Source: a virus | Reading direction: 5' to 3' (one strand) | Length of the DNA: 64,000 nt | IMG/VR virus record: IMGVR_UViG_3300035158_000293 | Span: 32,001 to 96,000 of that record | Part shown: positions 26,001-40,872 of the stretch, one piece after another | Layout: each line of letters begins with the position of its first letter | How positions within the stretch are numbered: the stretch's first letter is position 1 | Position numbers and translations under genes: made by a program | Notes under the pieces: generated by a model | Seen by the model: the letters and a program-made list of their open reading frames with translations, nothing else | Databases searched by the model: none | Told to the model about the DNA's origin: nothing

Positions 26001-29000
26001 ATTGTGCTCGTTTTTACCCTCTGAGAACGCACATGCGCGTCCATGCGCGTTTTTCTTTCGTGGGTTGGTGCCTCGTGTCATGTCGATGTCGAAAATGCTT
26101 TCTCGCGCATCCTCGTTCGTTTTTCGTTTTTGGGTGGTTTGCGCCTCGATCTCCGTACCGAAAACGTGCTGTGTAAAGGCGGATTCACCTAAAACCTCGG
26201 CCTTTACACGCTCCACATTACGGAAGTTTGTCTTCTTGAGAACGTCTACCCCGCCATGTCCGAGGGCTTTTTCACACCCCGCGGCAATTGCTCGGGCATT
26301 GCCGTACACGGGAAGAACGTAGTCGTCGCGATCTTTACCGAAGATAACCGCCGCCCCGACAATCTTGTTTGCACCTCGGAATGTAATGGGCTCTGTCACT
26401 CTGACATTCGGGTACTGGCTCTGCAAGGCGGTTGTCGTTGGACGATTCAAAACAGGACCGAGCTTGTCCACAAGGGCCTCAAGCTCCTTCCTGATTTTCG
26501 GGTTGTGTTGGTCGGTACGTCCCGGCCCTTCGTAGTTACGAACCCACGCTTTGAGGAAGTCCTTTATCTCTTTCTCCGCGGTCCTCCTGATCTTGACAGG
26601 GTCCACGTTTTGTGACGCGGCCATGCGCTCTATGTACTTCGCCACAAAACCCTCAAACGTATCCCGCCTTTGTGCCAACGCTTTGTCACGTTCACCTTCG
26701 ATATACTCACGCTCCCAATCTGCAAGGTCCGGGTCTTGGTAGTTGTACCGGGCCTCGAACTCTTCGTCGGGTTCGGGGTCAAATTCCTTAACCGTGTACT
26801 TCGTAATCGCCATGCCTGCCGGTGCAGCCATTACTGCAACCGATCCGGGGTCGGGAAGCTGGTCTTCGTCGGTTTTTGCTGTGCGCGTTTCTATTTGCAC
26901 GGCGAAAAGCATAGGGTCTCCGCCGAATTTGTTTGTGGCGTCCCTCGCGGAACTCAATGCTGTGAGGAAGTTTTGTGTGAAGTAGTTACCATCAAGACTT
27001 GCGAGGGCTTGATTCTTCTGATCCCAAACTTTCTGCTTCTGATTGAGTTTGAAGCCTTGTTTTAGAATCGACCTCCCAAACTTGGTAGTGGTACCGTGGA
27101 AGTACAACGCCTTGGCTTCGGTTAGATTTGACGTTGTGTCAAAACCCTCCCAAAAGTCGTCATCGAACTCGATTTCGATCTCCATACCCGGAAGCTCAAT
27201 TTCAATCTCGTTGTCATCCTCGTCTTCGTCGCCGTCTTCTCCGTCGGGATTTGTACCCTCTGGACTCGTGTATTTCCCGGTCAACAGATAGCCGTCGGAC
27301 GATGGCATTGTCGATGAATCTCCCTTTACAATGGCGTCCTTTCCGGGATGCGTAGTTGTGATACTGTGCTCCGGGTGTTCGCCTGCGCAAGTCTCCTCCT
27401 CTTCGGCTGCTTCATCGGACTCCGTTACCGGTATCTTCGTTCGGGCCAACGCATCTGCAAACGTGGCAAACCTTGCCACCTCAACCTCGCCTTGCATCAC
27501 CACAAAAGGCTCGTCCCCGTACTCCTTTACGTCGATGCTGTACTCTGTCTGTTCCTTTTCTTTCTTAGTCTGGAACAGCCCTTTGTCGCGTTCTGAATCC
27601 TTGTCCGCAAAACGCTCGCGTTTTTGGTATGATCCTGTCCTTATGCTCCGCAATTTTGTACGAAGGTTCTGTAGCTTCTCCGCGAAGTCATCCAAAACAG
27701 AGTAAGTGTAATAGACAGTTTGTCCGGTTTTCCTGCCCGTCTCAACATTACGGCGTATGCTAGCCAAAGCCTCGCGAGCATACGCGCTGGTTTCAAAGGC
27801 CGTCACCACGTCATCTTCTTGGTCGTCGGAAACGAAGAACACCTTTACGGGACCATCCACGCCTGCGGGCATGATCGCTTTGTCATACTCGACACCAGCA
27901 ATCACGACCCCTGCGTCGAACACTTCGTAGTTGTCGAGGTCTTCGCCATATATGAACTCGTGTTTGCCGTAAACAGGGTAATACGGCAACGCTTCTTCTG
28001 TATCGTCGGCTTCTGTCACACTCTCGTTCATGCGGGCCTTGATCCAGCTCTTGAAGCGGCTGTTCTTATCCTTTGCGGACACGATCTCTATTGTGTAGTC
28101 GGACTCGAGCTTTTTGATCTCTTTGAGGAGGTCCGCCTTTTCATCCCAAGTATCTCCATCTAAAGCGTGTTTCATTCTCAAAATGTCGGGCCACTCTTCC
28201 GACGGTTTGTCTCGCCACTCCATGTAATTGGTTACGTCCTCAAGCTGACTGATCCCTATGAGCAATTCGGACCCTTTGGGAATCTTCAAATCCCGATCTT
28301 TTATAATCCACTCGCCCTCGTTCTTGTAAACCTGTCCAATGAGCTTCAATCCCTCTGTTATTTTGCGCTCAAGCTCTTTCATAGGGACTTCGTCCAAAGC
28401 ATCGGCGAAGCGCTTGTAAGTGTAGTCCTCCTCACGAAGCTTTGGAATGCCGACCTTCTTCAACCACTTTGCAATATCTCGCGGTCCTCGGATTTTCTTG
28501 GGCGGGTTTTTTCGGGCTACGTCCGCCAACTTGCTGTGGCCAGCTATGTGTCGATTTTCCATCACAAGTGTTTTGTATTTCGAATCACTCTTGAACGCCT
28601 CTATCATGTATTCGAACACGTTGCGGTAAACCTGTGTTAAACCTATCGGGGTCTTGCTCGCGTCAAACAAACGGTAGAGCGCGTCACAATTCTTGGCGGT
28701 GAGATACATGGGGTTATCGTACATAACGCGGCTAACGGCGTTCTCTTCAACAAACGCACGCCCCGGCATCTTCAACGCGGCTGACTTGTTGAACAAGTAT
28801 TGGATGTCCTCGGAGCTACTGACACCCGCAGCGCCTTCGAGCCGTCTCTTTTTCAATGACTCAAGGTGAGACGGCTTGTACACGTCGAACGACAGGTAGA
28901 AAAATTCCGGTATGTCCGCGTCGGTGTAAGACGCCTCGACCAATGGCCGACCTGCAAACGTGGCCGTGTGCTCGTTTGTATCACCGTTAGGTAAACCCTT

Positions 29001-30902
29001 CATGTTCGTCTCTCCCAATTTATTGGTGCCACTCTCCAAAAGACCACGCTCTTTCAGTTTGTTGTAAGCCTCGTCCCCCAGCTTGTTTGCGATACTGTAC
29101 GGCATGTTCTTGAACACGTCGTTAATTATGTAGCCGGGTTCGGCTGCACCCCGCGAACGTCGGAAGAATGGGAGAAGCTGATCCAGTATGCCGTCTACTG
29201 TGTGCCACTTATTACTGCTGGGTTTTTCTTTTTTGATCCGCTTGGCAAGCTCGGCAAGTGTGGCCTTGCGTACTTCCTGCGGCTCAAAGAACTGGTAGTC
29301 GAGAAGGCCCGTACCGGAACCCTCGCCGTACTCCTCTATGAACTCCTCACGAGTCATAGGTACAAACTGTCCGTAACGCTCACCTCTGACGTAAACCTTC
29401 GTGATCTGACGAGGTGACACCCGCCCAATGAACAACGCTTGAGGCTCCTGACCCTTGTCCAGTAGTCCGAACGAAACACTCGGTCGGAAAGACTTGGGGT
29501 ACGACTTCCTCCAAAGATCGTCCTCGCGTTCCTGTTCTGCCGGGTTTTGACTGAACAGGTCTTTACCCTGCACCGTGAACCGCAGGATAACGGGTCCGAA
29601 CTTTTCGGCTGTTTTGTAGTCCGGCGCGACAAACAACCCACGGTCAAGCCGCTTGCCTCCTGAATAGTGCGGGTAAAGACGGTGTGTTGGCTTGGTGGCG
29701 TCGACGCCTTTGCGGACAAACTCCAAGGCGGTTTTTTGGTCTGTGCCGTGGAACAGTTGGAGTTTGGTGTTGGGCCGTAGCCGTGCGATGCTTCCGCGCT
29801 TGCCTTCATGGAGAGCTTCGGATTCCTCCATCCGCTCCCGCGTTCCAACGCCCTCATTCACCAGCCGTAGTTCGCCATGAGGCACGTCAAACGGGTTGTC
29901 GTAACCTTTGTCAACCGTTCGGAACCAAACACGCCTGTCAGAGCCTTCGGCAAACCGTTTGATAGCCGCATCTGTCTTTGCCACGGCCACTACCTTGTCA
30001 CCTTCCCTGACGTTGTACAGGTATTTGCCACGGTGTGTCTGCGTAATAATGTAATCACCGGGTGCGGGTGACGACCACCCTTGTGTACTCTCAATTTTGA
30101 GGTTCCTCTGCGCAAGTTCCTTCATGTGTGCCTGCGTCAACTTTTTTCTGCGGGATCGGCGTTTGCGCGGTTTCATGCCGGGTCGCGCATGGCTCATAGG
30201 CACTACCTGCACGTCGGTGATACCGCTTTTCTTCAACCAATTCTTAACACGGGACACCATGTTCTGATCAAGCACCAGCACCTTGTCCAACCATTCAGGA
30301 CGAAACTTGAAATCCCCTCCCCGCAACCATTCGTCTTCTTCCGCGTACTGTTCCATGAAAGCGTCGAGCATCATACCGCGCTTGACGTCCCAAAAATCAC
30401 CGACGAGGTAGTCCTCATATTCTTCCTCTTCGAACGGCTCCCCATCTTCATCAAACACACCTCCCTGAGCAGCGGCGGACGCCAACTCGTCGGGGGTTTC
30501 AATAACCCCGCCCTCCGCGTCAAAAAACTCCTCATACGGGAAGGTATCCATAGCCATGCCGTATGCTTGCTCCGCAGCAACATCGGTCATTTCGGGAGAC
30601 TGTGCGAGGACGTATTCAACAGCCGTTGGGTTTTCGTCAAACCAGTCCTCGGTGTAGTGGACCTCTGTAAAGTGTGATTCGAGTGGTTTGCGATGGAACG
30701 CTAAAATCACATCGTGATGTGTCCCGAACATCCCACCTTCAAGCGGATAAGTCGAAAGGCTGACGAAAGCGGGTCCGCCCATGTATGATGCGTTGGCTTT
30801 CAACGTCCGGGATTTGAGGATGTCCCTGAGAGCTTTGTAGTGTGTGGTGTGAAAGAAGTGCTTGGTCTGCGCTTCGAACAGAGAAATTCCGCTGTTACCC
30901 AT
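20088..30902 (-). CDS. 3604-aa polyvalent, probably virion-associated protein with multiple ART-like domains and a YodL-like domain
   Basis: FFHTT..FVSLS..EEDEW; LFHGT..GLFVAP; FYLSF..GVSSS..NEGEW; YFHGTT..GNYFT; HTSMSIGDVIV. Confidence 0.8.
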   Translation of the reverse strand: MGNSGISLFEAQTKHFFHTTHYKALRDILKSRTLKANASYMGGPAFVSLSTYPLEGGMFGTHHDVILAFHRKPLESHFTEVHYTEDWFDENPTAVEYVLAQSPEMTDVAAEQAYGMAMDTFPYEEFFDAEGGVIETPDELASAAAQGGVFDEDGEPFEEEEYEDYLVGDFWDVKRGMMLDAFMEQYAEEDEWLRGGDFKFRPEWLDKVLVLDQNMVSRVKNWLKKSGITDVQVVPMSHARPGMKPRKRRSRRKKLTQAHMKELAQRNLKIESTQGWSSPAPGDYIITQTHRGKYLYNVREGDKVVAVAKTDAAIKRFAEGSDRRVWFRTVDKGYDNPFDVPHGELRLVNEGVGTRERMEESEALHEGKRGSIARLRPNTKLQLFHGTDQKTALEFVRKGVDATKPTHRLYPHYSGGKRLDRGLFVAPDYKTAEKFGPVILRFTVQGKDLFSQNPAEQEREDDLWRKSYPKSFRPSVSFGLLDKGQEPQALFIGRVSPRQITKVYVRGERYGQFVPMTREEFIEEYGEGSGTGLLDYQFFEPQEVRKATLAELAKRIKKEKPSSNKWHTVDGILDQLLPFFRRSRGAAEPGYIINDVFKNMPYSIANKLGDEAYNKLKERGLLESGTNKLGETNMKGLPNGDTNEHTATFAGRPLVEASYTDADIPEFFYLSFDVYKPSHLESLKKRRLEGAAGVSSSEDIQYLFNKSAALKMPGRAFVEENAVSRVMYDNPMYLTAKNCDALYRLFDASKTPIGLTQVYRNVFEYMIEAFKSDSKYKTLVMENRHIAGHSKLADVARKNPPKKIRGPRDIAKWLKKVGIPKLREEDYTYKRFADALDEVPMKELERKITEGLKLIGQVYKNEGEWIIKDRDLKIPKGSELLIGISQLEDVTNYMEWRDKPSEEWPDILRMKHALDGDTWDEKADLLKEIKKLESDYTIEIVSAKDKNSRFKSWIKARMNESVTEADDTEEALPYYPVYGKHEFIYGEDLDNYEVFDAGVVIAGVEYDKAIMPAGVDGPVKVFFVSDDQEDDVVTAFETSAYAREALASIRRNVETGRKTGQTVYYTYSVLDDFAEKLQNLRTKLRSIRTGSYQKRERFADKDSERDKGLFQTKKEKEQTEYSIDVKEYGDEPFVVMQGEVEVARFATFADALARTKIPVTESDEAAEEEETCAGEHPEHSITTTHPGKDAIVKGDSSTMPSSDGYLLTGKYTSPEGTNPDGEDGDEDEDDNEIEIELPGMEIEIEFDDDFWEGFDTTSNLTEAKALYFHGTTTKFGRSILKQGFKLNQKQKVWDQKNQALASLDGNYFTQNFLTALSSARDATNKFGGDPMLFAVQIETRTAKTDEDQLPDPGSVAVMAAPAGMAITKYTVKEFDPEPDEEFEARYNYQDPDLADWEREYIEGERDKALAQRRDTFEGFVAKYIERMAASQNVDPVKIRRTAEKEIKDFLKAWVRNYEGPGRTDQHNPKIRKELEALVDKLGPVLNRPTTTALQSQYPNVRVTEPITFRGANKIVGAAVIFGKDRDDYVLPVYGNARAIAAGCEKALGHGGVDVLKKTNFRNVERVKAEVLGESAFTQHVFGTEIEAQTTQKRKTNEDARESIFDIDMTRGTNPRKKNAHGRACAFSEGKNEHNQTHRREFDTMSINEPNESTVVSESKQKRFGDEIAKLYRKDTTEKLSPKLQREATNYAARNNEGVALTKQLARAAWMHMPQIEDEEYFTDLFRQAFDRAVGELKLEEQRQKAQITWDYVPLDIERCASCNTVLAEDEPVVVDEEARTMCLDCVDRRKQQPYFEEIAETYQGTIEAGMITSRFGTWGVKKTEAGTLVVLKGKAYDVPNTFEEVHSLVKEIHGMYEDLPEECDAMIEAFLEEYTRDAGTETPESQKVQKQANPEPAEPEEEGARERLLGFGLLTNDNEDHITADPTLAKESEESGMGNLHEAKGETGKLARKVLRLEEGAGTQEEQREQYRKLVAEAKKNVGKAPKLLQPYIRDAIKRVEKELANPNSDPSDWADAELKRLDVRGREVKRIDRWMKEQNAMHYDPKVKGTPHPDWEPVSGSRRLSCNVSGDYGSVSISSTTKEMYVSWTPWTMTVAKKAGVKVEGEEGGQTLPEEVSETENGVQGFDVDTMSMEEEGRRKGKGTEGLKESVMGRGRYGIAAGAYEVVGKTVSGMPVLRKREVCESVAGTHFPKFTRVEGSLAFFRGGIVERGRILAHRADYRHALLNPLQDAASTPMTTIEAGAGSAPFAPDPADLHPLFGAQIPFVPPEETEEGKTADTSVTLPATDRGFAALDQGQNAGLAQETTEAGDNMLKSATNAVDVHNAFPNISPELAAVIAAQVQKGKVTTEQALRDIGERVKHPVERLDDLVYVDRGDAGQPTFMLLNGRVYLDSLARYNLIHGGDRTDGVGLLGEGWKRLGTIDRTRYKKRQGLEGPFQTPTGKVVYYDPREGCYYDPDTDIYYPRNKNPFQESIVEFLEPQEQYVGSDLVNGWSVMFTTESGSTDGPFRVYVNEGNDVNAYRLWSTFPTFAQAMTSAAAHVGQMPRGNSTLHKYDIPEVALKTSRGTFGESKWRAPIITRDVHYGDGKRVTLRRDESGVTIRRGEQVVGSVIRASAAVGDGQTASVYSVQIDSPDVDAVAVTQAVERVLPEFMEEVVRKQAAVSDLSVYPWQGGDAYKYPIGKGRNEPAVKQTDMTKLEKGEALVTLPRSRIAAKTEAVAPDANTIEVSLTVEDSAPDRYVYRTARVDGTRILRIKNDKAVVRITLENSREFTYKFPDQVTASAFAFNVAQGRDWTLDKLNALARNVNQQVTVGEAEDCDYTVQEILRIIDRIERGVSIDTTSKPDDSEVPTNTHTITEGNRCDIVEARKPIEIEWSKQPGRGVVDEFALYVDYDLPKTAPGKAAKPRYAGTKDTRGANVPRALFKNLTQNNRDMNPVYKFKAPEQLDTFVARVKTKARWTEDDLDALAKREGGLRITKLNRYLDSMIRGLKAESSDTMSNDLAEGRDIAAAKKLVKPGYVGTEWETAAGRDAKEPTVIRRVEAYDEDKGMVAISQSDRPAKFMELLPVDQLVGEIAFNRAQAEAAKAKAQTSKEKEEEQQKKQADYEDTDGFAEQFPPLRAGRVRKHLHTRINVPVGIGTNKRVPLKGRDLIRGLVRAGWRVKRGRGGRRIVKGASFFVEKDLSKTLLDYAEYLYPKRKQIKPVKGLPKHFTEDIHPAVFGIGGVVMVPLAEGSPVNEVTEYRNLNVAARYVPGLAEGDTEIWYMKTGVSRDLGMGFDWAKDHDALPDPKNLRKTHILLGKVKERDPEKLFRAMQARLWSPHGEARKLLKQKGIDHTSMSIGDVIVTGNKVLLVDRGGFVDLKKVQESDAVARLHPEQVHHGVLAEERRGILQEGSKRSFPAGTPKQKTAAESILKKLERKLQMEADTLASFYEPEEEPHPLYNPDKATLDKVVKLTLDVLYSVHAGEIVRVAKLRGFDDPNAFFRYFGRWLAGRRDPWDFPVKGMEFVNALKSLSECAFGPYGIESPGPDDLLVLQSFPRKNLYEAKIGDIIIARFESDAALREFVEGATTRVWFQAAEGSNPFNAPEGLTTLIKEADAE

Positions 30903-31007: not shown

Positions 31008-34000
31008 TTATGCGAGCATGCCGTAGCCGTCACCAACCTCCAAATCACCTTCAGCCGAAACCATCATGGTTCCGCATTTGGGGCACTCCATGCCCCGCGC
31101 GGTTGACTGTTTCGGTCCTGTGGAGTAACCACAGCCCGGACACCGCATGAGCCCCACAGACATCGCAAAACCACCGCTGGAGAAACCACCCGTGCTCGCA
31201 GTTGTAGTGACTTCCTTGAGCCTTTTTGCGGTCTTGCCTGTGAAGCCGCTCTCTTGATACTTCTTGTACGCCAACTTGTCGAACTTGCCTTTCTTGGCTT
31301 CCCTCTCAAACTGATCCCGCATCATCTCTGCGGCTCTCTGACGTATCTGTGGAGTAACGTCGAGATAAGGAATGCCTACAACCTTGGAGGCACCTTTGTA
31401 CGCCGCATTGGACAGAGTGAGAAACTTCTTCACCGCCTGCTCGCGGTCGTAGTCACCTTTGGCGACGTGGTTGATCATCGACCTGCAAGCTTGCTGCCAT
31501 GCGGGTTCCGCGGCCATTTGAATCGTTTTGACAATGAAGTCCGCCATCTTCTTACCATACGGCGTTTCTTCATCGCCTTCTCCTTCATCGAGGTGTTCCA
31601 CGCTCTCCATGAACATGCGGACCTTGCGCTGTATCTCCGCCAACCGTGCTGTTTTGTCTAATTTGAAATTGTCGTCCTCTTCATCCTCGTCGGGGTCGTA
31701 CTTAGGGCGCGTAGCCTTGATAACAGCCATTAAGTCAACCGCCTCGTTCAACGCTTCGGGAAACAACTCACGACGTCGTGCTTTGACCCGTTCTATCATA
31801 GGCTCCCATGAACCATATCCGGGATCAAGACGCTCACCATACTGACGCAACGTGTCGGGTGTCATGTACCTTTCTTGTCCGCGCTCTTCAAAGCGTAGTA
31901 ACACGCGGCAATCACTCCCGTCGCTCTCGTTTGGGCCGTTTACAAACAACAGACCGACACTCTCCAAATGCACCGACGATTCCCCGATGATTTGCATAGG
32001 CCAATTCTGCTTGACGATGGGCAAGTAAACACCCTCGCTGGTTGAAGCGTTTGCACCAAACGATACCTGATTGAACGGCACCGGCTTGTGTCGGCTAAGG
32101 TGTGCAACCTGCCTTGCGAGTTTGGTCTGTTTCGGGGTTGAGTAGTCGAACGTCTCTTGGAGATTTGACACAACGTCAAACCCTTCAACCACGTAATCTT
32201 TCGGCTTATGTGTGTAAGGGGATAAACCAACAGGCAATCCGGTGGGAGGTACGAATGCGTCAGGGTTGTTGCTCAAATACTCCTCCATGTCCTTGCGTAG
32301 TATCTTCATCAAACCCCTCTTGTCGCCATCCTTTTCAGGGTCTGTTATTTGATCGTTGAAAACCTCCATGAAACGCTGCGCCCACCAAGGGTTCTGAGGC
32401 ACGGTAAAGAGTGTTTGCTTCTTGGGGTCGTTCAACGCCCGCCCTATTTCTGCAATGCTGTAATTATTCAACTGCGCAGACTCACCGAATAACTCTTGCA
32501 AATACGATAGGTAGTTTTGTACCTCTGGTTTAAGCCCTTTGAACTTCTCCACGGACTCCAAGTAGCTCTCTTTATCGGTCCGCCCTATTTCTTCAATCTT
32601 GTTACCGCCCTCGCTACTAACCTTAACCAACCAAATTTTTTCGTTCCCCTCGGCATCAACTGCGGCGTAATATGCTTTGCGGTATAATTTCCCTTTGTGT
32701 TTACCTACGCCTTCTGTTTCCTCGTACTTCTCTATGGTATCGAAGGTTAGGTTTTTCAAATCCTCAACCGTTCTACTCACACGGTCAGGAATTACAGGGC
32801 TCGACGGCGGCGCGGGAGGGGCCTCTGTAACGGTAGGCTCAGAATCCAAACCCTCACCGGTGATTTTCTTCTTAATCTTAGCATACCACTCACGAACCTG
32901 ATCAAAACCTTCTTTTACATCGTTGCCATAGGTAACATACTCGGCAGCACCTTGATCTATATACCCACCGCGATCCTCAACCTCCTTCAACAAGTCTTCA
33001 TTATTCCACGGATAGGTCAACGTAAGATTGAACCCTTCCTTGGACCCTGTCGATTTGGTTGCGCTGCGCTGTACTCCCTCGTCTGTAGTGTAAATCCCAA
33101 AGTAAATGCTCGCCGCGTCTAACCGACCTTGATTAACGGCGTTCAACAACTTTGTAAGGTTGACACTAATACCCGCAGGACCAACCTTTGACGTAAATGC
33201 TTTAGGCTTTGAATCGCTGGGAGAGAGTTTCAAAGCCCCTTTAACGGTGAAGCCGCCCTCGTTTACTACCTGCTCCTTCGGGATGTTGTTCTTGACCCAC
33301 TCGCGCAGCTCAAGGATTTTAGGATCGGTGGCCGCTTCCTTGGAGTCTTTGACAAACTCCGTGTAAACCTTACCCACGGCTTTCATGGCTTCCTTGAAAG
33401 CCTTAACACTCGGCACCGCCTCTATACCCTCGGACTTGAGGTATTCCTCAACCTGCTTTTCAGTCACAACCATTACATCGCCGTCTGGAACTTCAAAGGC
33501 GAACACACGGTGTACCAAATCAAATCCGCCACCATATGTAGGTAAGTCCTCGACCTGCAAACCCGCCCACTTCAACGAGAAGTCGCGGCCTGCCTCTTCA
33601 CTTTTCAAACCCATGCCTTCAACCGCATCACCAGAGATGATCTTCACGTTGACTACAGGCTTGACTATGGGAACCCCGTAATTTGAGAACTCTTGTGTTG
33701 TAGCCTGAGTCTCCCCGTACTGAGAAGCAAACTCCGCTATCTTGACTTGCTTTTCGTCCGTATAGGTATCGGCTTCTTGATCTGCCGGTTTTTCGGCTTC
33801 TGTATCTGCCATAGCGTCGTCTTGTGTAGCGCCGGGTTCCAGATCAGGCTCCCCGGTTTCTTCGGGCGTTGGAATGTCCAACTGTTGCTCTCCGGGTACG
33901 CCTTCGACGGGCCACATGTCACCGTCCTCATACATATCGAGCAACTGATCATCCCAAACGTGGGTCAGCGTGTCCTGCCCAAGTAGATACAGCAAATAGA

Positions 34001-35837
34001 GAGGATCACCGTCAGGGTCGTTAATGACCGCGTAGATGTACGCCTTATTACCCGACGTATCGGTAACGTAATCCTTCAATTTGACCGGGCTTCCGTTCGC
34101 TTTGGCTGCCTTTGCAAAGTCGGTAGTGTGGATATTAACCATCTCAACACCGGCTTCAGCAATGTCTTGCAATTCCGGCTGTGTCGCCACGTAAGCTTCG
34201 ACCTCTGTACGACGGATGTCGTCAGAAGGAACGTCAACCTCTGTCTCGGGGACCGCGGAACTGGGTAGAGAAGCCCCGACGTAATCACCCCACTCGGTGA
34301 CAACTTTGTTCGTCAACTTCGACAGGCTGTGAATGTACTTTTTCAGAACGGCTTTGATGGACTTCTCGCTCGGCATGACCATCCAATCGCCAAGCTTGTC
34401 CTGCCATTTGCCGTTGGCCTGCACCGTATAGGTTGCGAAAGGTTTCCCCTGCTCCACACCGAAGCCACGAGTCTCCACCGTCATGGTGTTGTACATCTCG
34501 CCGGTAGCTCTCACAAGGAACTCAACGCGCAGATGTGGGAGCCCGACGCCCGGACCATAACCGGGGTCTTTTTGTGGTTCAACGTAAGCCACAAGCACCG
34601 CTGTGTCGGGTTGCCCTCCGGTTTTCGTAGTGTTCGTTTTTTCCACCGCCACAATAACGGGGAAGGAACCACCCAACTTGATCGTGTCGGGAATGTTTCC
34701 AGACTGGGCAAGTCGATCAGCCACGGGCTTCAACGCCTTGCGTAACGCGGGTTTGTATCGCGCCAAGAGCTTTTCCAACTCTTTCACGGTGTACTTCTTT
34801 TTAAGCCCTTGTTTGCGACGGTGTTTCGTCTTGAAGTAGTACTTCTTGGGGAACTTCTTGGCCTTGGCTTCATACAACGCAACAAGATCAGACCTGTCGT
34901 ACAGACTTTCACAAATGCGAGCCTTTGCACGAGTCAATTGCGTGCTTGACATTGAGTCAAACCGCTCCCGCAGACGCTCTATGTCTTCTGTAAGCGGTGT
35001 CCAATTCTCTGCGTCCGTAGTCACCCATCGAACCTTTTGGGCATCCTCTGCCACCACCCTGATTCGACCACCTATACGATGAAGCTGTGCTTGTTCCAAA
35101 TCCACGTCGAAGAGGTGCTCCACAAGCTTGCCAGCGAGCACCTTTTCAACCACGGCCTCCTCATATTTCTTCATGGTGTCTTTCGCCAACTCCGGCTCTT
35201 TTTCTGGCTTCTTGTCTTCTTCCTCCTCTTCGCTACCTTTGTCTTTCTTTTTTGTCGCGGGTCCGGGACGTCCACCCTTGACGGGCTTGCCTTCAAGGAT
35301 AACCACATCAGACACCACCCCGTCTTCGGGAGCCACCGAACCACCATTCACCAGCATATCGAAGGTTGCGATGCTGCTCGTAGTGCTTCTCAGACGCTCA
35401 AACTCCATATCAGACCACTTGCCCTCGAAAATAGCGAGGAAGGAACTACTTCCGGGGCGTACCTGCGTCTCCACGAATTTCTCATACAGGTCACGACGCT
35501 TGGTTAAAAGAAAGGTTTCAAATTCCAGAGCGGCCATGCCGGTGTCAGAGTTGGTGTACGTGGCGTCCTTCTCTATGAATTTCTTGGCAAACTCACGAGC
35601 ATCGACGCTCCCCAAAGCAACCGCTGTCTCCGTGATCAGATCAATATATGCCGCCGGATGTGCAACCGTCTCGCCCGTGATTGTAGTGGGAAGGTCAAGC
35701 CTGTCCCGCATGTCAGCGATGCGATCATAGAGAGAAACGTCGAGCTTGTCCACAAGGTCCGCCTCCAAGCGGCCTTCTTCAAGAGCTTGACGCAGACGTT
35801 TGCCTGAATACAGCGTGCATTTGGGTTGGGCCTTCAT
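31008..35837 (-). CDS. 1609-aa multidomain protein with C-terminal Zn ribbon
   Basis: GGAGG RBS; long ORF; CPGC...CPKC at C-terminus; LxE[AG] linkers. Confidence 0.8.
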   Translation of the reverse strand: MKAQPKCTLYSGKRLRQALEEGRLEADLVDKLDVSLYDRIADMRDRLDLPTTITGETVAHPAAYIDLITETAVALGSVDAREFAKKFIEKDATYTNSDTGMAALEFETFLLTKRRDLYEKFVETQVRPGSSSFLAIFEGKWSDMEFERLRSTTSSIATFDMLVNGGSVAPEDGVVSDVVILEGKPVKGGRPGPATKKKDKGSEEEEEDKKPEKEPELAKDTMKKYEEAVVEKVLAGKLVEHLFDVDLEQAQLHRIGGRIRVVAEDAQKVRWVTTDAENWTPLTEDIERLRERFDSMSSTQLTRAKARICESLYDRSDLVALYEAKAKKFPKKYYFKTKHRRKQGLKKKYTVKELEKLLARYKPALRKALKPVADRLAQSGNIPDTIKLGGSFPVIVAVEKTNTTKTGGQPDTAVLVAYVEPQKDPGYGPGVGLPHLRVEFLVRATGEMYNTMTVETRGFGVEQGKPFATYTVQANGKWQDKLGDWMVMPSEKSIKAVLKKYIHSLSKLTNKVVTEWGDYVGASLPSSAVPETEVDVPSDDIRRTEVEAYVATQPELQDIAEAGVEMVNIHTTDFAKAAKANGSPVKLKDYVTDTSGNKAYIYAVINDPDGDPLYLLYLLGQDTLTHVWDDQLLDMYEDGDMWPVEGVPGEQQLDIPTPEETGEPDLEPGATQDDAMADTEAEKPADQEADTYTDEKQVKIAEFASQYGETQATTQEFSNYGVPIVKPVVNVKIISGDAVEGMGLKSEEAGRDFSLKWAGLQVEDLPTYGGGFDLVHRVFAFEVPDGDVMVVTEKQVEEYLKSEGIEAVPSVKAFKEAMKAVGKVYTEFVKDSKEAATDPKILELREWVKNNIPKEQVVNEGGFTVKGALKLSPSDSKPKAFTSKVGPAGISVNLTKLLNAVNQGRLDAASIYFGIYTTDEGVQRSATKSTGSKEGFNLTLTYPWNNEDLLKEVEDRGGYIDQGAAEYVTYGNDVKEGFDQVREWYAKIKKKITGEGLDSEPTVTEAPPAPPSSPVIPDRVSRTVEDLKNLTFDTIEKYEETEGVGKHKGKLYRKAYYAAVDAEGNEKIWLVKVSSEGGNKIEEIGRTDKESYLESVEKFKGLKPEVQNYLSYLQELFGESAQLNNYSIAEIGRALNDPKKQTLFTVPQNPWWAQRFMEVFNDQITDPEKDGDKRGLMKILRKDMEEYLSNNPDAFVPPTGLPVGLSPYTHKPKDYVVEGFDVVSNLQETFDYSTPKQTKLARQVAHLSRHKPVPFNQVSFGANASTSEGVYLPIVKQNWPMQIIGESSVHLESVGLLFVNGPNESDGSDCRVLLRFEERGQERYMTPDTLRQYGERLDPGYGSWEPMIERVKARRRELFPEALNEAVDLMAVIKATRPKYDPDEDEEDDNFKLDKTARLAEIQRKVRMFMESVEHLDEGEGDEETPYGKKMADFIVKTIQMAAEPAWQQACRSMINHVAKGDYDREQAVKKFLTLSNAAYKGASKVVGIPYLDVTPQIRQRAAEMMRDQFEREAKKGKFDKLAYKKYQESGFTGKTAKRLKEVTTTASTGGFSSGGFAMSVGLMRCPGCGYSTGPKQSTARGMECPKCGTMMVSAEGDLEVGDGYGMLA

Positions 35838-35968
35838 AAAAAATACCTCCCACGTAAATGGTTTAGCGTAGAAGGTATTTTACTATGTGCCGTCCCGTAT
35901 TCAACCTCTTTCGGAGCTTTCGCCGCGCCCCCTCTCCAATTCAAGCCACACTCTTCTGAGGGGAAACG

Positions 35969-36877
35969 CTAGTCCCACTCCACCTGTTCCGTCTTGTCCA
36001 TGAAGGTCACGCCAGCAGGCCACTTTTCGGGGACCATTATCATGTAGTCCGTGAAAACTCGCGGGGAAAGAACATCGTCTTTCAACGCCACCTGCACGGC
36101 CTCGAACAGGTGAAACGCTTGGCAATTCCCCAAGGTGTCGGCATGCTCCCACACAAACAACCGACGTGTAGACATACGGCCTCGCCCCGCCGACCGGCTA
36201 AGGTCGAACATGTGGATGATGGCTTCCCACAGAGCATCCAAATCGGCGTAGGTAAAGCCTGTGTCTGCGGCGAGCATGGGGTTGACGAAACCTTCTGCGA
36301 CGTACAAACCGTAAGGGATCGTGTACTTGGAACCCATCTCCGTCTCGCTTTTGTGCGAGTCCGTTTTCTCCTGCGTAGTGTACGCCACCCGCGTGATCAT
36401 GTGGTTTTTGATCAGAACACGGCTCACCGACCGAGCATCTGTTATCTGTACCGGCCCTGTAACTTGTCCGTTGTTGAACGCCGTAGTGCTCATTACCGCA
36501 CCGAACGCCCGTACATCGAAAAAGTTTGCGCACATCCAATCCCGCGCCTGCGCAATGTCGTCCTTTGTGGCTTTCTCGGGGTCGATTTTCAAATTATCGT
36601 AGGACATCCTCTGACGACTCTCGAGAGCGTGCCCCGCCAGCACGAAGATGTCCTGCCCCTTTTCGACTTTACCGCCTTGCGAGTGCTTGTAGTAGTGAAA
36701 GTCCCGTATCTTGCGCTTCAGGCTTCCGTTGGAAACAAGCCCTTGAAATGTTTCCGGGTCCGTCCGTGGAGCGTTGTTGAAATCGGGATCACCGTTGGGG
36801 TTTCCGTCCACACAATCGAACATGATGAGAAAATCGTACCGCCGGTCAACTACCTTGTCACGTTTGGCGTCTGCCAT
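35969..36877 (-). CDS. cas7: Type I-C Cas7 (Csd2)
   Basis: RYDF...GNPNGDPD..NAPR.DPET..GLVS...LKRKIRD; FFDVRAFGAVM; GPVQ; MGSKYTIPYGLY. Confidence 0.97.
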   Translation of the reverse strand: MADAKRDKVVDRRYDFLIMFDCVDGNPNGDPDFNNAPRTDPETFQGLVSNGSLKRKIRDFHYYKHSQGGKVEKGQDIFVLAGHALESRQRMSYDNLKIDPEKATKDDIAQARDWMCANFFDVRAFGAVMSTTAFNNGQVTGPVQITDARSVSRVLIKNHMITRVAYTTQEKTDSHKSETEMGSKYTIPYGLYVAEGFVNPMLAADTGFTYADLDALWEAIIHMFDLSRSAGRGRMSTRRLFVWEHADTLGNCQAFHLFEAVQVALKDDVLSPRVFTDYMIMVPEKWPAGVTFMDKTEQVEWD

Positions 36878-36932
36878 TTTGTGATCCTTTCGTTTTTTGT
36901 TTGTTTCAACCTTTTTTTTTCAACATAACCCG

Positions 36933-37403
36933 TTTTCAATCCGCGCACATGTGCGAGTGTTACTGTTGGTGCGAGTGTTGGATTTGAACCCTTCACAGTT
37001 TTCAATCCGCGCACATGTGCGAGTGTTACCTCACCCATGCGATGGGCTGTGGCAGAATGTTTTCAATCCGCGCACATGTGCGAGTGTTACCCGGTATGAT
37101 CCGTCTCTCCCTTTCAATCCGCGCACATGTGCGAGTGTTGCTGTGATAAACTATCGGTCTGATCCTGTCTTTCAATCCGCGCACATGTGCGAGTGTTACC
37201 ACCTGACCGCTTTTCCTTTTTTCAATCCGCGCACATGTGCGAGTGTTACCAATGGACGCTCATCCAGCTTGCAGTTTTTCAATCCGCGCACATGTCCAAG
37301 CGTTACTTTATTTTCAATCCGCGCACATGTACGAGTGTTGTCATGTCCTCCATGATCGGCTCAACTTTGTGTCTTTCAATCCGCGCACATGTGCGAGTGT
37401 TAC
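36933..37403 (-). CRISPR. Type I-C-like array: 9 repeats (GTAACACTCGCACATGTGCGCGGATTGAAA), 8 irregular spacers
   Basis: 30-nt cores start (+) at 36934, 37000, 37061, 37112, 37170, 37220, 37277, 37312, 37374; GGATTGAAA 3' end typical of I-C; spacers in transcription order 32, 5, 27, 20, 28, 21, 31, 36 nt. Confidence 0.95.
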
Positions 37404-37825
37404 TGGCTTTCGGTAGTTTCCGTTTCGGCCTCCTTTCTGGCGATAGCTTCCTCTGCCTGCTGTCGATCATGGGCTTTTTGGTGGTAAAAACCGACGGCGA
37501 AAAGCGCCTGATCTTCCGGGCTTTGCTGTGTCGGGAACCGCTCTATTCGATTCATTACGTCTGTCACCCGCTGGTCAATCGCGTGGCCTGCCGCCACAAT
37601 CGCGGGGTTGCGTGATCTCTTGAGTTTCGCAATGTGGTAGCGAGCCTTCGGGTTCATCTCGGAAAAAGCTTGATCCGGTACGACCGCGGCGTTACGGAAA
37701 AACTGCTCGGCAACCGTCCGCTGTATCTTGAAAATGGCTTTGTACTGCAAAGTGTCGTAGATAGCCAGCAAACGCCCACACAGGTAGGCGGGGTGGTTAT
37801 TGTTGTGGTCCAATTGCGCTTCCAC
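37400..37825 (-). CDS. cas11: Cas11c small subunit from internal in-frame start in cas8c
   Basis: GAGGAGG SD (37831-37837) 5 nt before in-frame GTG, just ahead of LD..N.HPAYLCGRL, where I-C Cas11 is known to start. Confidence 0.75.
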   Translation of the reverse strand: MEAQLDHNNNHPAYLCGRLLAIYDTLQYKAIFKIQRTVAEQFFRNAAVVPDQAFSEMNPKARYHIAKLKRSRNPAIVAAGHAIDQRVTDVMNRIERFPTQQSPEDQALFAVGFYHQKAHDRQQAEEAIARKEAETETTESQ

Positions 37826-39244
37826 GTTGCCCTCCTCTAAATCATTCAAACATACCCGCAGAAGTGCAAGTTTCTGTGACGCCCTCTGCATAGGGTCAGT
37901 ACAAAAAATCCTTTCCAACAACCGTGAGAGCACTCGTCGGTCGAGCGGTTCGTTGAACAGCGCCCGCCACACCAAACTCTGCTGGATGTGGTCCTCTGGA
38001 CTTTTACCTTTTGTCGCCGCACCCTCCATTGCGGGGTCTGCAAGTGTTTTTTGTAGTTTCCACAATGCGGGCGCTCGAACAAAGCGTCCGCTGTAGGGGC
38101 TCTGAACTCGCACGTCGTGGAACCATTGCCACACGTTTTCGTATATCTCCCCTATGGTGTTGTCATCGTACCGCCGCACGATCATGCGGGACATGTTCGC
38201 TGTAACGGTAAGTGAGTGAAAGCGCAAATCCGTAACCTGTGGTAGTGGTTCCGATTCTGTTCCTGCACCAAAAACTTGACACAACGTCAAACCCTGCTTC
38301 GGAGCATCCAGAACAGCACTTACAATGTCCGGGTCGGGGTTGTTCACGAACTCCATCGGAGGGTGTAAAACAGGTTCGTCGGTCCAGCACAGTAGTGCCG
38401 CGCCCCGGATATTGTATCGCGTTCGCACCTCTTTCTCGGACCTGTACCGGAGCAGATCGTTCAACGCCATAACATACGCTTTGGATGCTCGTATGCTCAT
38501 CGGGCAGTTTTGATTTTGTTTCCATCCAAACGACTCGAACGCCGCACGATTAAACGATATGAGCGATACACCCGAAGGCATACCCCCGATATTGGTGCAA
38601 TGTTTGATTTTATCGTGCGTCCGCGACAACGGTCCATACTCCCCCGTCACAATACAGTATCCGTGCCCCGCGGAAGCGTGGCGTTCGAAAACACCCTCCT
38701 CGTAGTAATCTGCCCAATACTGTCGCAGGGCCTCACGCTCGACCACAGGTTCAGGTGAAGTGCTTCCGGGGATTGCGCAGTATAACGCCAACCGATTGTT
38801 GGCTACAACACCTCGTTCAACAGCTAACTCTCTGGCCTTTTTGACCACTTCGGGGTCCGCATAGAACGCCACACACGCCTTAACCGCTGGATCGTCGGTA
38901 ACGTCTGCGATTGTATTCCACAATTCAACCGAGGCAACGTGACGTTCGTTGTGATTTCGCTCTTTACCTTCCGGTGTCCATGCGGGGTCCGCCCCCAAAA
39001 TATACTGCACCGCGTCGCACCCCGGTAGTGGGTACAACCCGCCGGACCTGTGGTGCGGAGATTTGGGGGCTGAAAGGGTTGTTTGACCTTCCGGTGCAAT
39101 ATCTTCAAAAGGCATAATGTCCACAAGCCCGCCTTTTGCATCGAGAGCAACTACGAAGTGTACCAAACCCTCTTCAAACGCTGGGTTGTTCAACTCGTCA
39201 GACAGGTTGCTTTCCGCATAGGCACACAAAGCCTTCAAATACAT
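37400..39244 (-). CDS. cas8c: Type I-C Cas8c (Csd1)
   Basis: CIVTGE....RTHDKIK; SLISFNRAAFESFG..QN.N.P; AYVMALNDLL; AYLCGRLLA; FAVGFYHQ. Confidence 0.95.
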   Translation of the reverse strand: MYLKALCAYAESNLSDELNNPAFEEGLVHFVVALDAKGGLVDIMPFEDIAPEGQTTLSAPKSPHHRSGGLYPLPGCDAVQYILGADPAWTPEGKERNHNERHVASVELWNTIADVTDDPAVKACVAFYADPEVVKKARELAVERGVVANNRLALYCAIPGSTSPEPVVEREALRQYWADYYEEGVFERHASAGHGYCIVTGEYGPLSRTHDKIKHCTNIGGMPSGVSLISFNRAAFESFGWKQNQNCPMSIRASKAYVMALNDLLRYRSEKEVRTRYNIRGAALLCWTDEPVLHPPMEFVNNPDPDIVSAVLDAPKQGLTLCQVFGAGTESEPLPQVTDLRFHSLTVTANMSRMIVRRYDDNTIGEIYENVWQWFHDVRVQSPYSGRFVRAPALWKLQKTLADPAMEGAATKGKSPEDHIQQSLVWRALFNEPLDRRVLSRLLERIFCTDPMQRASQKLALLRVCLNDLEEGNVEAQLDHNNNHPAYLCGRLLAIYDTLQYKAIFKIQRTVAEQFFRNAAVVPDQAFSEMNPKARYHIAKLKRSRNPAIVAAGHAIDQRVTDVMNRIERFPTQQSPEDQALFAVGFYHQKAHDRQQAEEAIARKEAETETTESQ

Positions 39245-39945
39245 CGCAATTCCCCCCACGCCTTCCTGTCCAAAACCACGAAGGGGTCTGTATTGATGAC
39301 CCCATCACGCATGACCGCTCGGTAGAACACGGGCGTGTTGTGGCCGTTTTCCCTGTAGACGATGCCGTACAACATTGTCCCCAAATCCTTCGTGACAGGA
39401 ATGGGGGTGCCTTCATCGCCTGTCAGACACGTTATGTTTGCGGCATACTCTCGACATCCGAGGTACGGTTGGTGAAACTGTTGCCCCTCCCGTAAGCGAC
39501 GCAGGAACATCTCCTTGTATTTGGTCGGTCTGCTCTGTTTGTCCGCTCGATGAACCTTCGGATATGCCGTCACAATGTAGTCAACGTCCCGCAAGATTCG
39601 CCCTGTGCGGTTTGTTGTGTGCCTCGCTTGTCCCGCACCGCCCGGCTGTGGTCGGTAGGTGGAGGGGTCGCCCATCCACCGCTTTACCGTGCGCGGAGCA
39701 ACTTTATTGAGGAGTTCGTTCGTCGCAAAGCTCTGCCATTTGATGGGTTTCAACACCGCAATGCTGGTGATTATCCAAATGAATTCGGGCTTCCCGAGGA
39801 TAGCCCGCAGAGCACCGCGTAGTGCAGACGGTGTCGGCACCTCGTAGGATACTCGTTCAGCCTTCCCCTCGGGTCGTGTGAAACACGCCAAAGCCCCTCT
39901 GATCCTCACCGTTACGCTCGCGTGTTTTTGTCTTGTGGTAGTCAT
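39235..39945 (-). CDS. cas5: Type I-C Cas5 (Cas5d)
   Basis: G..ACFTRPE.K.ERVSYEVPTPSA.RG; LRDVDY; FHQPYLGCREY; DLGTMLY; start reassigned to ATG 39945 (AAGGGGG RBS). Confidence 0.96.
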   Translation of the reverse strand: MTTTRQKHASVTVRIRGALACFTRPEGKAERVSYEVPTPSALRGALRAILGKPEFIWIITSIAVLKPIKWQSFATNELLNKVAPRTVKRWMGDPSTYRPQPGGAGQARHTTNRTGRILRDVDYIVTAYPKVHRADKQSRPTKYKEMFLRRLREGQQFHQPYLGCREYAANITCLTGDEGTPIPVTKDLGTMLYGIVYRENGHNTPVFYRAVMRDGVINTDPFVVLDRKAWGELRCI

Positions 39946-39967
39946 GCACACCCCCTTTTTTATTTTT

Positions 39968-39996
39968 AGTTTACCCGGTGGAGCGAGTTTTGTCAA
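39968..39996 (-). promoter_or_regulatory. Sigma70-type promoter of the cas operon
   Basis: TTGACA-N17-TAAACT with T-rich upstream element. Confidence 0.8.
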
Positions 39997-40037
39997 GAAA
40001 AAGCAAGAAAAAAATTTAGGCGCACATGCAATCACGG

Positions 40038-40472
40038 TCAATAAGTGCGTTCCTGAAAGGTTTGGCGCATTCTATCTACGACAAATTGGATAACGTGCTC
40101 CATTAAAGAACGTATAACCAACTGTCCGTGCTCCTCCAACAGCTCTTTGGCGGCTTGTGACACAATTTCGCTACCCCAACTGCCAACGCTCGCACCCCCA
40201 CTCGTACCTTCGCTATCCAAGTACTCCTTAACAGCTTCCTTGAAGTAGTCTCGCACCTCTTCCTTGATCATTTCCCGTAAAAGTGAAGGCTTGCTCTCAC
40301 CGCCTTTTTTGCGGGGCTTGGTGAATTCTTCGATCTCTTGCTGGATTATCTGGTTCCGAGTGTCTTCGTCCATCGTTTCAACAAGGCTCTCGCGAATTGC
40401 TGCTTTCACACGAGAAGACCACACATCCGCAAGGTCTGGTTTAACATTGTAACCCATGACTACCTCCTTCAT
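40038..40472 (-). CDS. Hypothetical helical protein
   Basis: AGGAGG RBS near start. Confidence 0.6.
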   Translation of the reverse strand: MKEVVMGYNVKPDLADVWSSRVKAAIRESLVETMDEDTRNQIIQQEIEEFTKPRKKGGESKPSLLREMIKEEVRDYFKEAVKEYLDSEGTSGGASVGSWGSEIVSQAAKELLEEHGQLVIRSLMEHVIQFVVDRMRQTFQERTY

Positions 40473-40503
40473 GTTTGTTCCACAAAACGCGCACAGCCGT
40501 AGC

Positions 40504-40872
40504 TCACGTTGTTTTCTTGGGTCTTATGATGCGTTTCTTGCCCGGTCGTTTGCCGATGCGTTTTACGACCTTCTGTGGCTTTTTTGGTTTCTTCGGTTTC
40601 TTCGGTTTTCTAATCCGTTTTTTAGCGCGGTGAAGGTTATCGTACCGGTCAACGTGCAGTTTGCCGTCAGCATCTTTGACTTGGCAACATACCTTACTTT
40701 TGCCTGCACGCCCCACGAGGGTACCTGATCGTCTTACTACCTCCCCCGAGGCCCGGTCAAAAAACGTGAAGAGAACGCGGTCGCCCGGTCTAAAGCCGTG
40801 TGTATCAAAGGCTTCACCCGCCATTGTCTTCTCCATCGGCCTCTTGAGCACCCGACAACCGAGCCAACGCAA
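40504..40872 (-). CDS. Basic protein with Lys/Pro-rich tail
   Basis: FRPGDRV N-terminal motif; KPKKPKKPKKP; true start probably MAGEAF. Confidence 0.5.
   Translation of the reverse strand: MRWLGCRVLKRPMEKTMAGEAFDTHGFRPGDRVLFTFFDRASGEVVRRSGTLVGRAGKSKVCCQVKDADGKLHVDRYDNLHRAKKRIRKPKKPKKPKKPQKVVKRIGKRPGKKRIIRPKKTT

Follow-up and report, generated by a model that had tools for sequence, protein, structure and literature searches.

A type I-C Cascade operon with its CRISPR array embedded between cas8c and cas7 is carried by a large uncultured phage. The 64,000-nt stretch analysed here (the window) corresponds to bases 32001-96000 of the 123,798-bp IMG/VR record IMGVR_UViG_3300035158_000293. The operon is tentatively read, with a little less than even confidence, as encoding a phage-borne, self-contained, nuclease-free, RNA-guided DNA-binding type I-C Cascade. 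Binding without cutting is the best-supported mechanism because the 124 kb yielded neither Cas3 nor a helicase, and because four of the seven usable guides are 19-27 nt long (19, 20, 26 and 27 nt). The operon comprises the following elements, given in window coordinates.

39968..39996, minus strand: putative sigma70-like promoter, TTGACA-17 nt-TAAACT, a consensus match
39235..39945, minus strand: cas5c, 236 aa from ATG 39945 (enclosing open reading frame 39235-40041)
37400..39259, minus strand: cas8c, large subunit, 619 aa (614 aa in the public gene call)
37400..37825, minus strand: putative internal cas11c, 141 aa from GTG V479, with GGAGG upstream
36933..37403, minus strand: CRISPR array of nine repeats, leaderless, between cas8c and cas7
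35969..36877, minus strand: cas7, backbone subunit, 302 aa (TIGR02589, 2e-83)
~35838..35887 (approximate), minus strand: long hairpin with an A-run and a U-run at its flanks, in the interval from cas7 to a gene for a 1609-aa protein

Operon layout and Cascade proteins

All genes of the operon lie on the minus strand in the order promoter, cas5c, cas8c, array, cas7, and every element of the anatomy proposed earlier from the bare sequence (hereafter the sequence-only reading) is present, including the embedded nine-repeat array. The operon's own sigma70 promoter, which that reading also proposed, is borne out as a consensus match only. The site agrees with the consensus at 10 of 12 positions, lies within the 92-nt gap upstream of cas5c and is the best in 35700-40700, an interval that holds 10 promoter-like sites versus 3.5 +/- 1.8 in shuffled sequences. 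The array has no leader because the cas8c stop codon (37402-37400) falls within repeat 1, and at its other end the cas7 ATG follows repeat 9 after just 55 nt. Once processed, this 55-nt cas7 leader (36878-36932) would bear an 11-nt CRISPR RNA (crRNA) handle at its 5' end. Speculatively, a Cas5-Cas7 filament formed on it could reach the cas7 ribosome-binding site, which makes feedback on Cas7 synthesis possible. The hairpin at ~35838-35887 appears in the minimum-free-energy fold of 35830-35975 (z = -2.05) and overlaps the Shine-Dalgarno sequence and start of the 1609-aa gene. It may serve as the operon terminator, and a terminator scan of the region did not flag it. A search against Rfam found nothing relevant.

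The three Cascade genes give full-length matches to type I-C families, well above curated cut-offs, and PADLOC agrees. Cas5c matches PF09704, TIGR01876 (1.2e-38) and the PADLOC Cas5c model (1.8e-55), and its translation probably begins from the ATG at 39945, which is preceded by a GGGGG ribosome-binding site. The protein is presumed to be the pre-crRNA endonuclease and the 5'-handle binder. Its triad positions read L/K/Y, with the catalytic Lys kept, and PMC8524198 describes Lys as the only invariant member of the Cas5 triad. The L/K/Y triad was considered as proof of inactivity and rejected, given that the functional Neisseria lactamica Cas5 (solved Cascade 8g9t) reads L/K/F. Cas7 is 53-62% identical to 119 other type I-C Cas7 proteins among the matches listed.

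Cas8c matches TIGR01863 over its full length (1.6e-93). Its nearest relative is only 36% identical: of 8000 candidates scored, 44 proteins reached E<=0.001, a count that includes the window's own Cas8c. IMG/VR yielded no close relative. Of 64 columns found to be near-invariant across 21 relatives, the protein retains 52. At the column of the Desulfovibrio vulgaris glutamine wedge the phage protein has Met; across 22 Cas8c sequences the column holds Q in 16, M in three (the phage included), L in two and R in one. Loss of the wedge was therefore rejected as a sign of a defect, the column being M, L or R in other Cas8c sequences as well.

Within cas8c, an in-frame GTG (V479, window 37825) with GGAGG upstream stands at the place from which the Cas11 structure of D. 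vulgaris aligns (7kha_K, its residues 4-113 against query residues 484-595). The Cas11 chains solved for D. vulgaris and N. lactamica (7kha_K and 8g9s_H) align to Cas8c residues ~483-595. The internal Cas11 start signal noted in the sequence-only reading is thus found at the homologous place. As McBride et al. are said to have reported in 2020, type I-C Cas11 is made by internal translation within cas8c, and the phage Cas11 would by the same route be made from the V479 GTG. By these comparisons the three Cascade proteins look intact; as far as sequence can indicate, their features neither disqualify the complex nor prove its activity.

Array, absent genes and proposed action

Each repeat is 31 nt long on the minus strand and consists of the core GTAACACTCGCACATGTGCGCGGATTGAAA with A or G as its last base. 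Over this 30-nt core six of the nine are identical, and repeats 2, 3 and 6 are altered. The repeats are co-oriented with the cas genes, and no further copies occur in the 123.8-kb record. Type I-C repeats are ~31-32 nt long and end in ATTGAAA plus one base, leaving an 11-nt 5' handle; the phage repeats end in GGATTGAAA(A/G). In length, GT start and GGATTGAAA end they resemble the type I-C repeat of Xanthomonas oryzae, for which a 5' handle of 11 nt, a spacer of 33-37 nt and a stem-loop of 20 nt are described (PMC8916207). The ATTGAAAC motif is reported to be the common handle of type I-C repeats (PMC8482600). A 12-nt core of the repeat is a perfect palindrome, and the whole array transcript folds better than shuffled sequences (z = -3.7).

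Two facts extend the sequence-only reading: the record is linear with a completeness of ~75% as estimated by CheckV, and the spacers are strikingly irregular. In transcript order (S1 to S8) they measure 31, 4, 26, 19, 27, 20, 30 and 35 nt, so that only one lies within the canonical 33-37 nt range. Repeat periods below 60 nt account for five of eight here versus one of 223 in ten arrays of nine other viral type I-C loci. Type I-E complexes whose spacers were cut back by 6, 12 or 18 nt are reported to form R-loops without locking or Cas3 cleavage (PMC6859484), and type I-C Cas3 is reported to dock only on the full R-loop state (bioRxiv 2023.08.05.552134). By analogy, four of the seven usable spacers, those of 19-27 nt, would be too short for Cas3 licensing.

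The sequence-only reading had found no cas3, cas1, cas2, cas4 or transposase gene near the operon, and this absence extends beyond the window to the whole ~75%-complete record. Profiles for the Cas3 core, Cas1, Helicase_C, ResIII, TniQ, Cas4, Cas2 and rve gave no match at E<=1 over the 123.8 kb, and the Cas3 HD profile gave none in a search that reports E<=0.001 only. As a positive control, the Cas7 family was found at 7.7e-86. Adaptation genes were represented by TIGR00287, PF09827 and PF01930, and transposon genes by PF06527 (TniQ) and PF00665 (rve); both transposon families are absent from the record, and the TnsA and TnsC families were not searched. The neighbours of the Cascade genes contain no helicase domain.

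From transcription through processing and assembly to binding-only action and the class of target, we infer the following course. Host RNA polymerase would transcribe cas5c-cas8c(/cas11)-array-cas7 as a single RNA from the sigma70-like promoter. Cas5c would then cleave the repeats, releasing crRNAs and separating the cas7 message; because the layout is that of a single transcript, repeat cleavage would also cut the mRNA ahead of cas7. Cas5c, Cas8c, Cas11 and Cas7 would assemble on crRNAs with the 11-nt handle CGGAUUGAAA(A/G). The resulting complexes would bind DNA flanked by a protospacer-adjacent motif (PAM), where partial or unlocked R-loops could block transcription or replication without degradation. 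Genes of the host or of competing mobile elements would be the likely targets.

A more specific form of this proposal seems somewhat unlikely as a whole. It holds that a virulent-type large phage carries a natural, self-contained CRISPR interference (CRISPRi) device in which the Cascade genes and a leaderless array share one transcript and processing couples guide output to cas7 expression. The 19-31-nt guides would have been selected for binding-only silencing of genes of the host or of rival elements, with neither nuclease nor motor, and would arise by a route other than the ruler-based acquisition of Cas1-Cas2.

Alternatives and points of doubt

Several observations weigh against a binding-only complex, and they are best considered together with the alternatives on which they bear. 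Two concern the making of guides. The repeat hairpin is weak (4 bp and a tetraloop, -4.7 kcal/mol, no better than shuffled sequences), and in Cas5c a Gly replaces the Trp that stacks on the crRNA handle beside the first triad position. Because of this hairpin and this substitution, crRNA processing is not assured.

Other observations concern Cas3. Because the record is ~75% complete, Cas3 or another effector could sit in the missing quarter. Three spacers (30, 31 and 35 nt) come close to the canonical length and may be long enough for Cas3 licensing. In N. lactamica, a 'recruit loop' of Cas8c (A276-P297) is reported to grip Cas3 (bioRxiv 2023.08.05.552134), and the segment of the phage Cas8c that aligns with it, in a weak alignment, is retained and still hydrophobic. 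The operon could accordingly be a normal interference module served by Cas3 in trans, encoded either in the missing ~25% of the phage genome or by a host type I-C system, with targets degraded at least by the longer guides. We regard this as unlikely.

Searches for related loci bear on the same alternative. The Cas7 profile recovered 15 IMG/VR loci, 13 of them with cas5-cas8c-cas7, and none of these 13 has an array between cas8c and cas7. Nine of the 13 have cas3, which favours Cas3 in trans, but in these it lies within a few kb of cas8c. The phage operon is separated from the ends of the record by ~68 kb (left) and ~52 kb (right), which would place any cas3 in the missing part far from it. 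Two further loci of the 13 are cut next to the operon. The last two, L035 and L036, are near-identical IMG/VR fragments of 21.7 and 26.4 kb with cas5-cas8c-cas7-cas1 and a regular array of 19 repeats. They contain no Cas3 core and, in L035, for which alone it was searched, no Helicase_C, with ~14 kb present upstream of cas5. As for Cas3 supplied by a host, cross-talk is doubtful because no known Cas8c shares more than 36% identity with that of the phage. The sequence-only reading had listed the borrowing of host Cas3 among three possible roles; the retained recruit-loop segment leaves room for it, and the negative search for arrays with the phage repeat, described next, speaks against it, as do the four of seven guides that by analogy would be too short for licensing.

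Neither IMG/VR nor 185,579 species genomes (one per species) nor JGI metagenome contigs yielded a CRISPR array built of the phage repeat. A 24-mer of the repeat had no match in IMG/VR. Its 20-mer core had one match in the species genomes, a chance hit to a coding tandem repeat in a Saprospiraceae metagenome-assembled genome. The 18-mer core had 26 single-copy matches in the JGI contigs, none with a second repeat copy, which is near a back-of-envelope chance estimate of ~29 for an assumed collection size. The best look-alike (L030), the sole JGI match read closely, sits in a coding gene.

Searches for targets were also negative, a further point against the proposed action: no spacer gave a target in the record, GenBank phages, PLSDB plasmids, the part of IMG/VR covered or JGI. 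Self-targeting was rejected, as the rest of the 124 kb contains no match to any spacer at <=20% mismatches, and runs of a TTC PAM plus seed reach <=7 counted positions there, which is chance level. Whole-array blastn gave only matches of E>=2, in five of 50,697 phage records and three of 72,556 plasmid (PLSDB) records. The first 24 nt of S1, S7 and S5 had no exact match in IMG/VR, with no mismatch tolerated, and 22 nt of S7 had none in JGI metagenome contigs. S3, S4, S6 and S8 were covered by whole-array blastn and not by the searches of IMG/VR, JGI contigs or species genomes. The first role named in the sequence-only reading, a DNA-binding complex repurposed for silencing, therefore stands in part: a binding-only Cascade best fits the tested evidence, and no spacer match points to genes that would be silenced.

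The same searches bear on anti-CRISPR mimicry, in which phage subunits or crRNA-like transcripts would load onto a host type I-C complex, or the phage Cascade would soak up host crRNAs, giving dead-end complexes. The 5'-handle motif is common to type I-C repeats, anti-CRISPRs built as RNA from repeats are described (PMC10651486; PMC11656645), and guides of sub-normal length would yield defective complexes. Against this stand the negative search for a host array with a matching repeat, the high divergence of the subunits from known systems, which argues against mixed assembly, and the presence of a full intact Cascade, which exceeds the needs of a decoy. Cas proteins are, moreover, apparently not widely recruited as inhibitors according to a review (PMC11656645). 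Mimicry is judged very unlikely, and the poisoning of host Cascade, the third role in the sequence-only reading, gains no support from the species genomes or JGI contigs.

The remaining doubts concern decay. The 4-nt 'spacer' sits between two degenerate repeats, and the 35-nt spacer 8 holds a 12-nt copy of the 5' part of the repeat; together these features look like scars of rearrangement. Cas8c has changes in 12 of the 64 near-invariant columns versus 0-5 in 20 of the 21 relatives, the most distant of which has 17. With the irregular spacers, the weak hairpin and the lack of targets, these features would fit a decaying relic, once a complete phage type I-C system, that has lost cas3, whose array is eroding and which has little or no present function. 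The three long reading frames are nevertheless intact and match their families over the full length, Cas7 keeps its 53-62% identity to the bacterial proteins among the matches listed, and of the nine repeats six agree at all 30 nt of the core. The promoter, ribosome-binding sites and internal Cas11 start are likewise intact.

The tenure of the operon in the phage also counts against decay. Codon use of the cas genes correlates with that of phage genes at r = 0.83, inside the phage range of 0.57-0.97. A 15-bp quasi-palindrome, TTGACACAAYGTCAA, occurs in 18 copies in the window (<=1 mismatch; 3327-63893) versus 0.01 expected from shuffles; the copies lie on either strand, are mostly intragenic and include one exact copy within cas8c at 38276-38290. 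Because of this phage-like codon use and the copy of a genome-wide palindrome within cas8c, the Cascade operon is a long-resident part of the phage and not an assembly chimera, and it has resided there without disruption. A relic is considered quite unlikely.

Phage surroundings, known systems and significance

Nearly all genes of the record lie on the same strand. Phage genes flank the Cascade genes on both sides and include a T4-like portal (<= ~30% identity to any cultured phage), SbcCD-like proteins, a flap endonuclease, ParB, RecA, a family A polymerase (PolA) with uracil-DNA glycosylase, ribonucleotide reductase and ThyX. The record also has an orphan ParB gene at a separate place (L003:17135-18457). 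Two DNA methylases directly upstream of the operon fit a counter-defence neighbourhood. Next to the operon, four upstream proteins of 144, 122, 105 and 105 aa and the downstream one of 1609 aa could not be placed in any informative family of Pfam, PHROGs, PADLOC or Atlas, and the 1609-aa protein has no close relative in IMG/VR. Three giant open reading frames are essentially without family match in Pfam or PHROGs.

31008-35837 of the window: 1609-aa open reading frame, directly downstream of the Cascade operon
20088-30902 of the window: 3604-aa open reading frame, downstream of the Cascade operon
L002:6624-17198 of the same record: 3524-aa open reading frame, downstream of the Cascade operon

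At its end the 1609-aa protein carries a CxxC...CxxC motif that resembles a zinc ribbon. Outside the window, the record encodes a 516-aa protein with a Tad6 (anti-Thoeris) domain (L002:1071-2621; 4.5e-27) and a 1101-aa protein with a Zeta-toxin/AAA_33 kinase-like domain (L001:1255-4560; 6e-15). Beside the T4-like portal, a 959-aa protein (L003:6610-9489) has a weak intein-splicing match (9.5e-5, below cut-off) and may be an intein-interrupted terminase.

The survey of viral loci yielded other arrangements. The remaining two of the 15 loci are IMG/VR proviruses, rated 100% complete, with a lone cas7 at L044:7974-8822 (PF05107, 7.7e-69) and L043:2535-3284 and no detectable cas5, cas8c, cas3, cas1 or array in the record. 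Such a lone cas7 could mimic a Cas subunit or belong to a system not yet recognised. L040 and L041, from large phages or proviruses of 112-119 kb in IMG/VR, carry a divergent type I-C Cascade and a divergently oriented cas3, without cas1. They have two arrays with different repeats, whose periods of 57-82 nt, and one of 140 nt, are less regular than those of bacterial-type arrays. A search with the Cas8c profile gave one canonical cas3-cas5-cas8c contig, and the Cas7 matches among GenBank phage records were four small unannotated gut fragments.

Canonical type I-C is the Dvulg subtype, exemplified by the Cascades of D. vulgaris and N. lactamica (PDB 7kha, 8dex, 8g9s-8g9u). With it the phage operon shares the Cas5c/Cas8c/Cas7 order, a 31-nt repeat ending in GGATTGAAA plus one base, the lack of Cas6 and a Cas11-like C-terminal part of Cas8c with an internal start signal. 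It differs in lacking cas3, cas4, cas1 and cas2 in 124 kb, in a leaderless array that lies inside the operon rather than flanking it, in spacers of 4-35 nt rather than uniform length, in its weak repeat hairpin and in a Cas8c <=36% identical to any relative.

Nuclease-less and adaptation-less phage CRISPR systems, and the idea that they silence, are already known from 2020 (PMC7162821). In huge phages, Al-Shayeb et al. (2020, PMC7162821) describe such systems, propose repression without cleavage and report a type I-C variant in which a helicase replaces Cas3. Those systems and the present one are phage-encoded, lack Cas1, Cas2 and Cas3, and have a compact array and a Cas5d-like processing subunit with altered active-site residues (here L/K/Y). 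The present operon is set apart from the known phage I-C variant by having no superfamily 2 (SF2) helicase in the record (Helicase_C and ResIII: 0), by its internal, leaderless array and by truncated guides; its genome is ~124 kb or more, versus >200 kb. The literature search found no phage Cascade-only type I-C operon with an internal array, its scope lying outside subscription papers and the extended data and supplements of PMC7162821, where Extended Data Fig. 9 or Supplementary Table 1 may hold similar layouts.

A Cas3-less, Cascade-type effector that recognises DNA without cutting is likewise found in type I CRISPR-associated transposons and in type IV-A (PMC11656645). Unlike the transposons, the phage has no TniQ and no rve-type transposase; unlike type IV-A, it has no DinG-like or other SF2 helicase, and its subunits are clearly type I-C. 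Regulatory guides of the crlRNA/CreA type share the principle that short or partially matching guides make a cutting-competent effector bind and repress (bioRxiv 2024.12.27.630466). These are described as acting within a complete host CRISPR-Cas system, usually on its own or on defence promoters, whereas here no self-target or beyond-chance seed match occurs in 124 kb. Viral mini-arrays or solitary repeat units (Racr) have repeats identical to those of the host and no cas genes of their own; this locus has its own Cascade genes, and no host array with its repeat was found in species genomes or JGI contigs.

Should cas3 lie in the missing quarter, the locus would be an ordinary interference-only phage CRISPR system with a scrambled array. 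If instead the complex forms and binds, it would be a natural phage CRISPRi system made from type I-C parts alone, with neither helicase nor transposase. Three genes and an array would then offer a compact model for the effects of short guides on the stoichiometry of type I-C Cascade and on R-loop locking, for subunit balance when an array sits inside a cas mRNA and for guide acquisition by phages without an adaptation module. Such a system would likewise have a bearing on the rarity with which phages recruit Cas proteins, a puzzle noted in PMC11656645.

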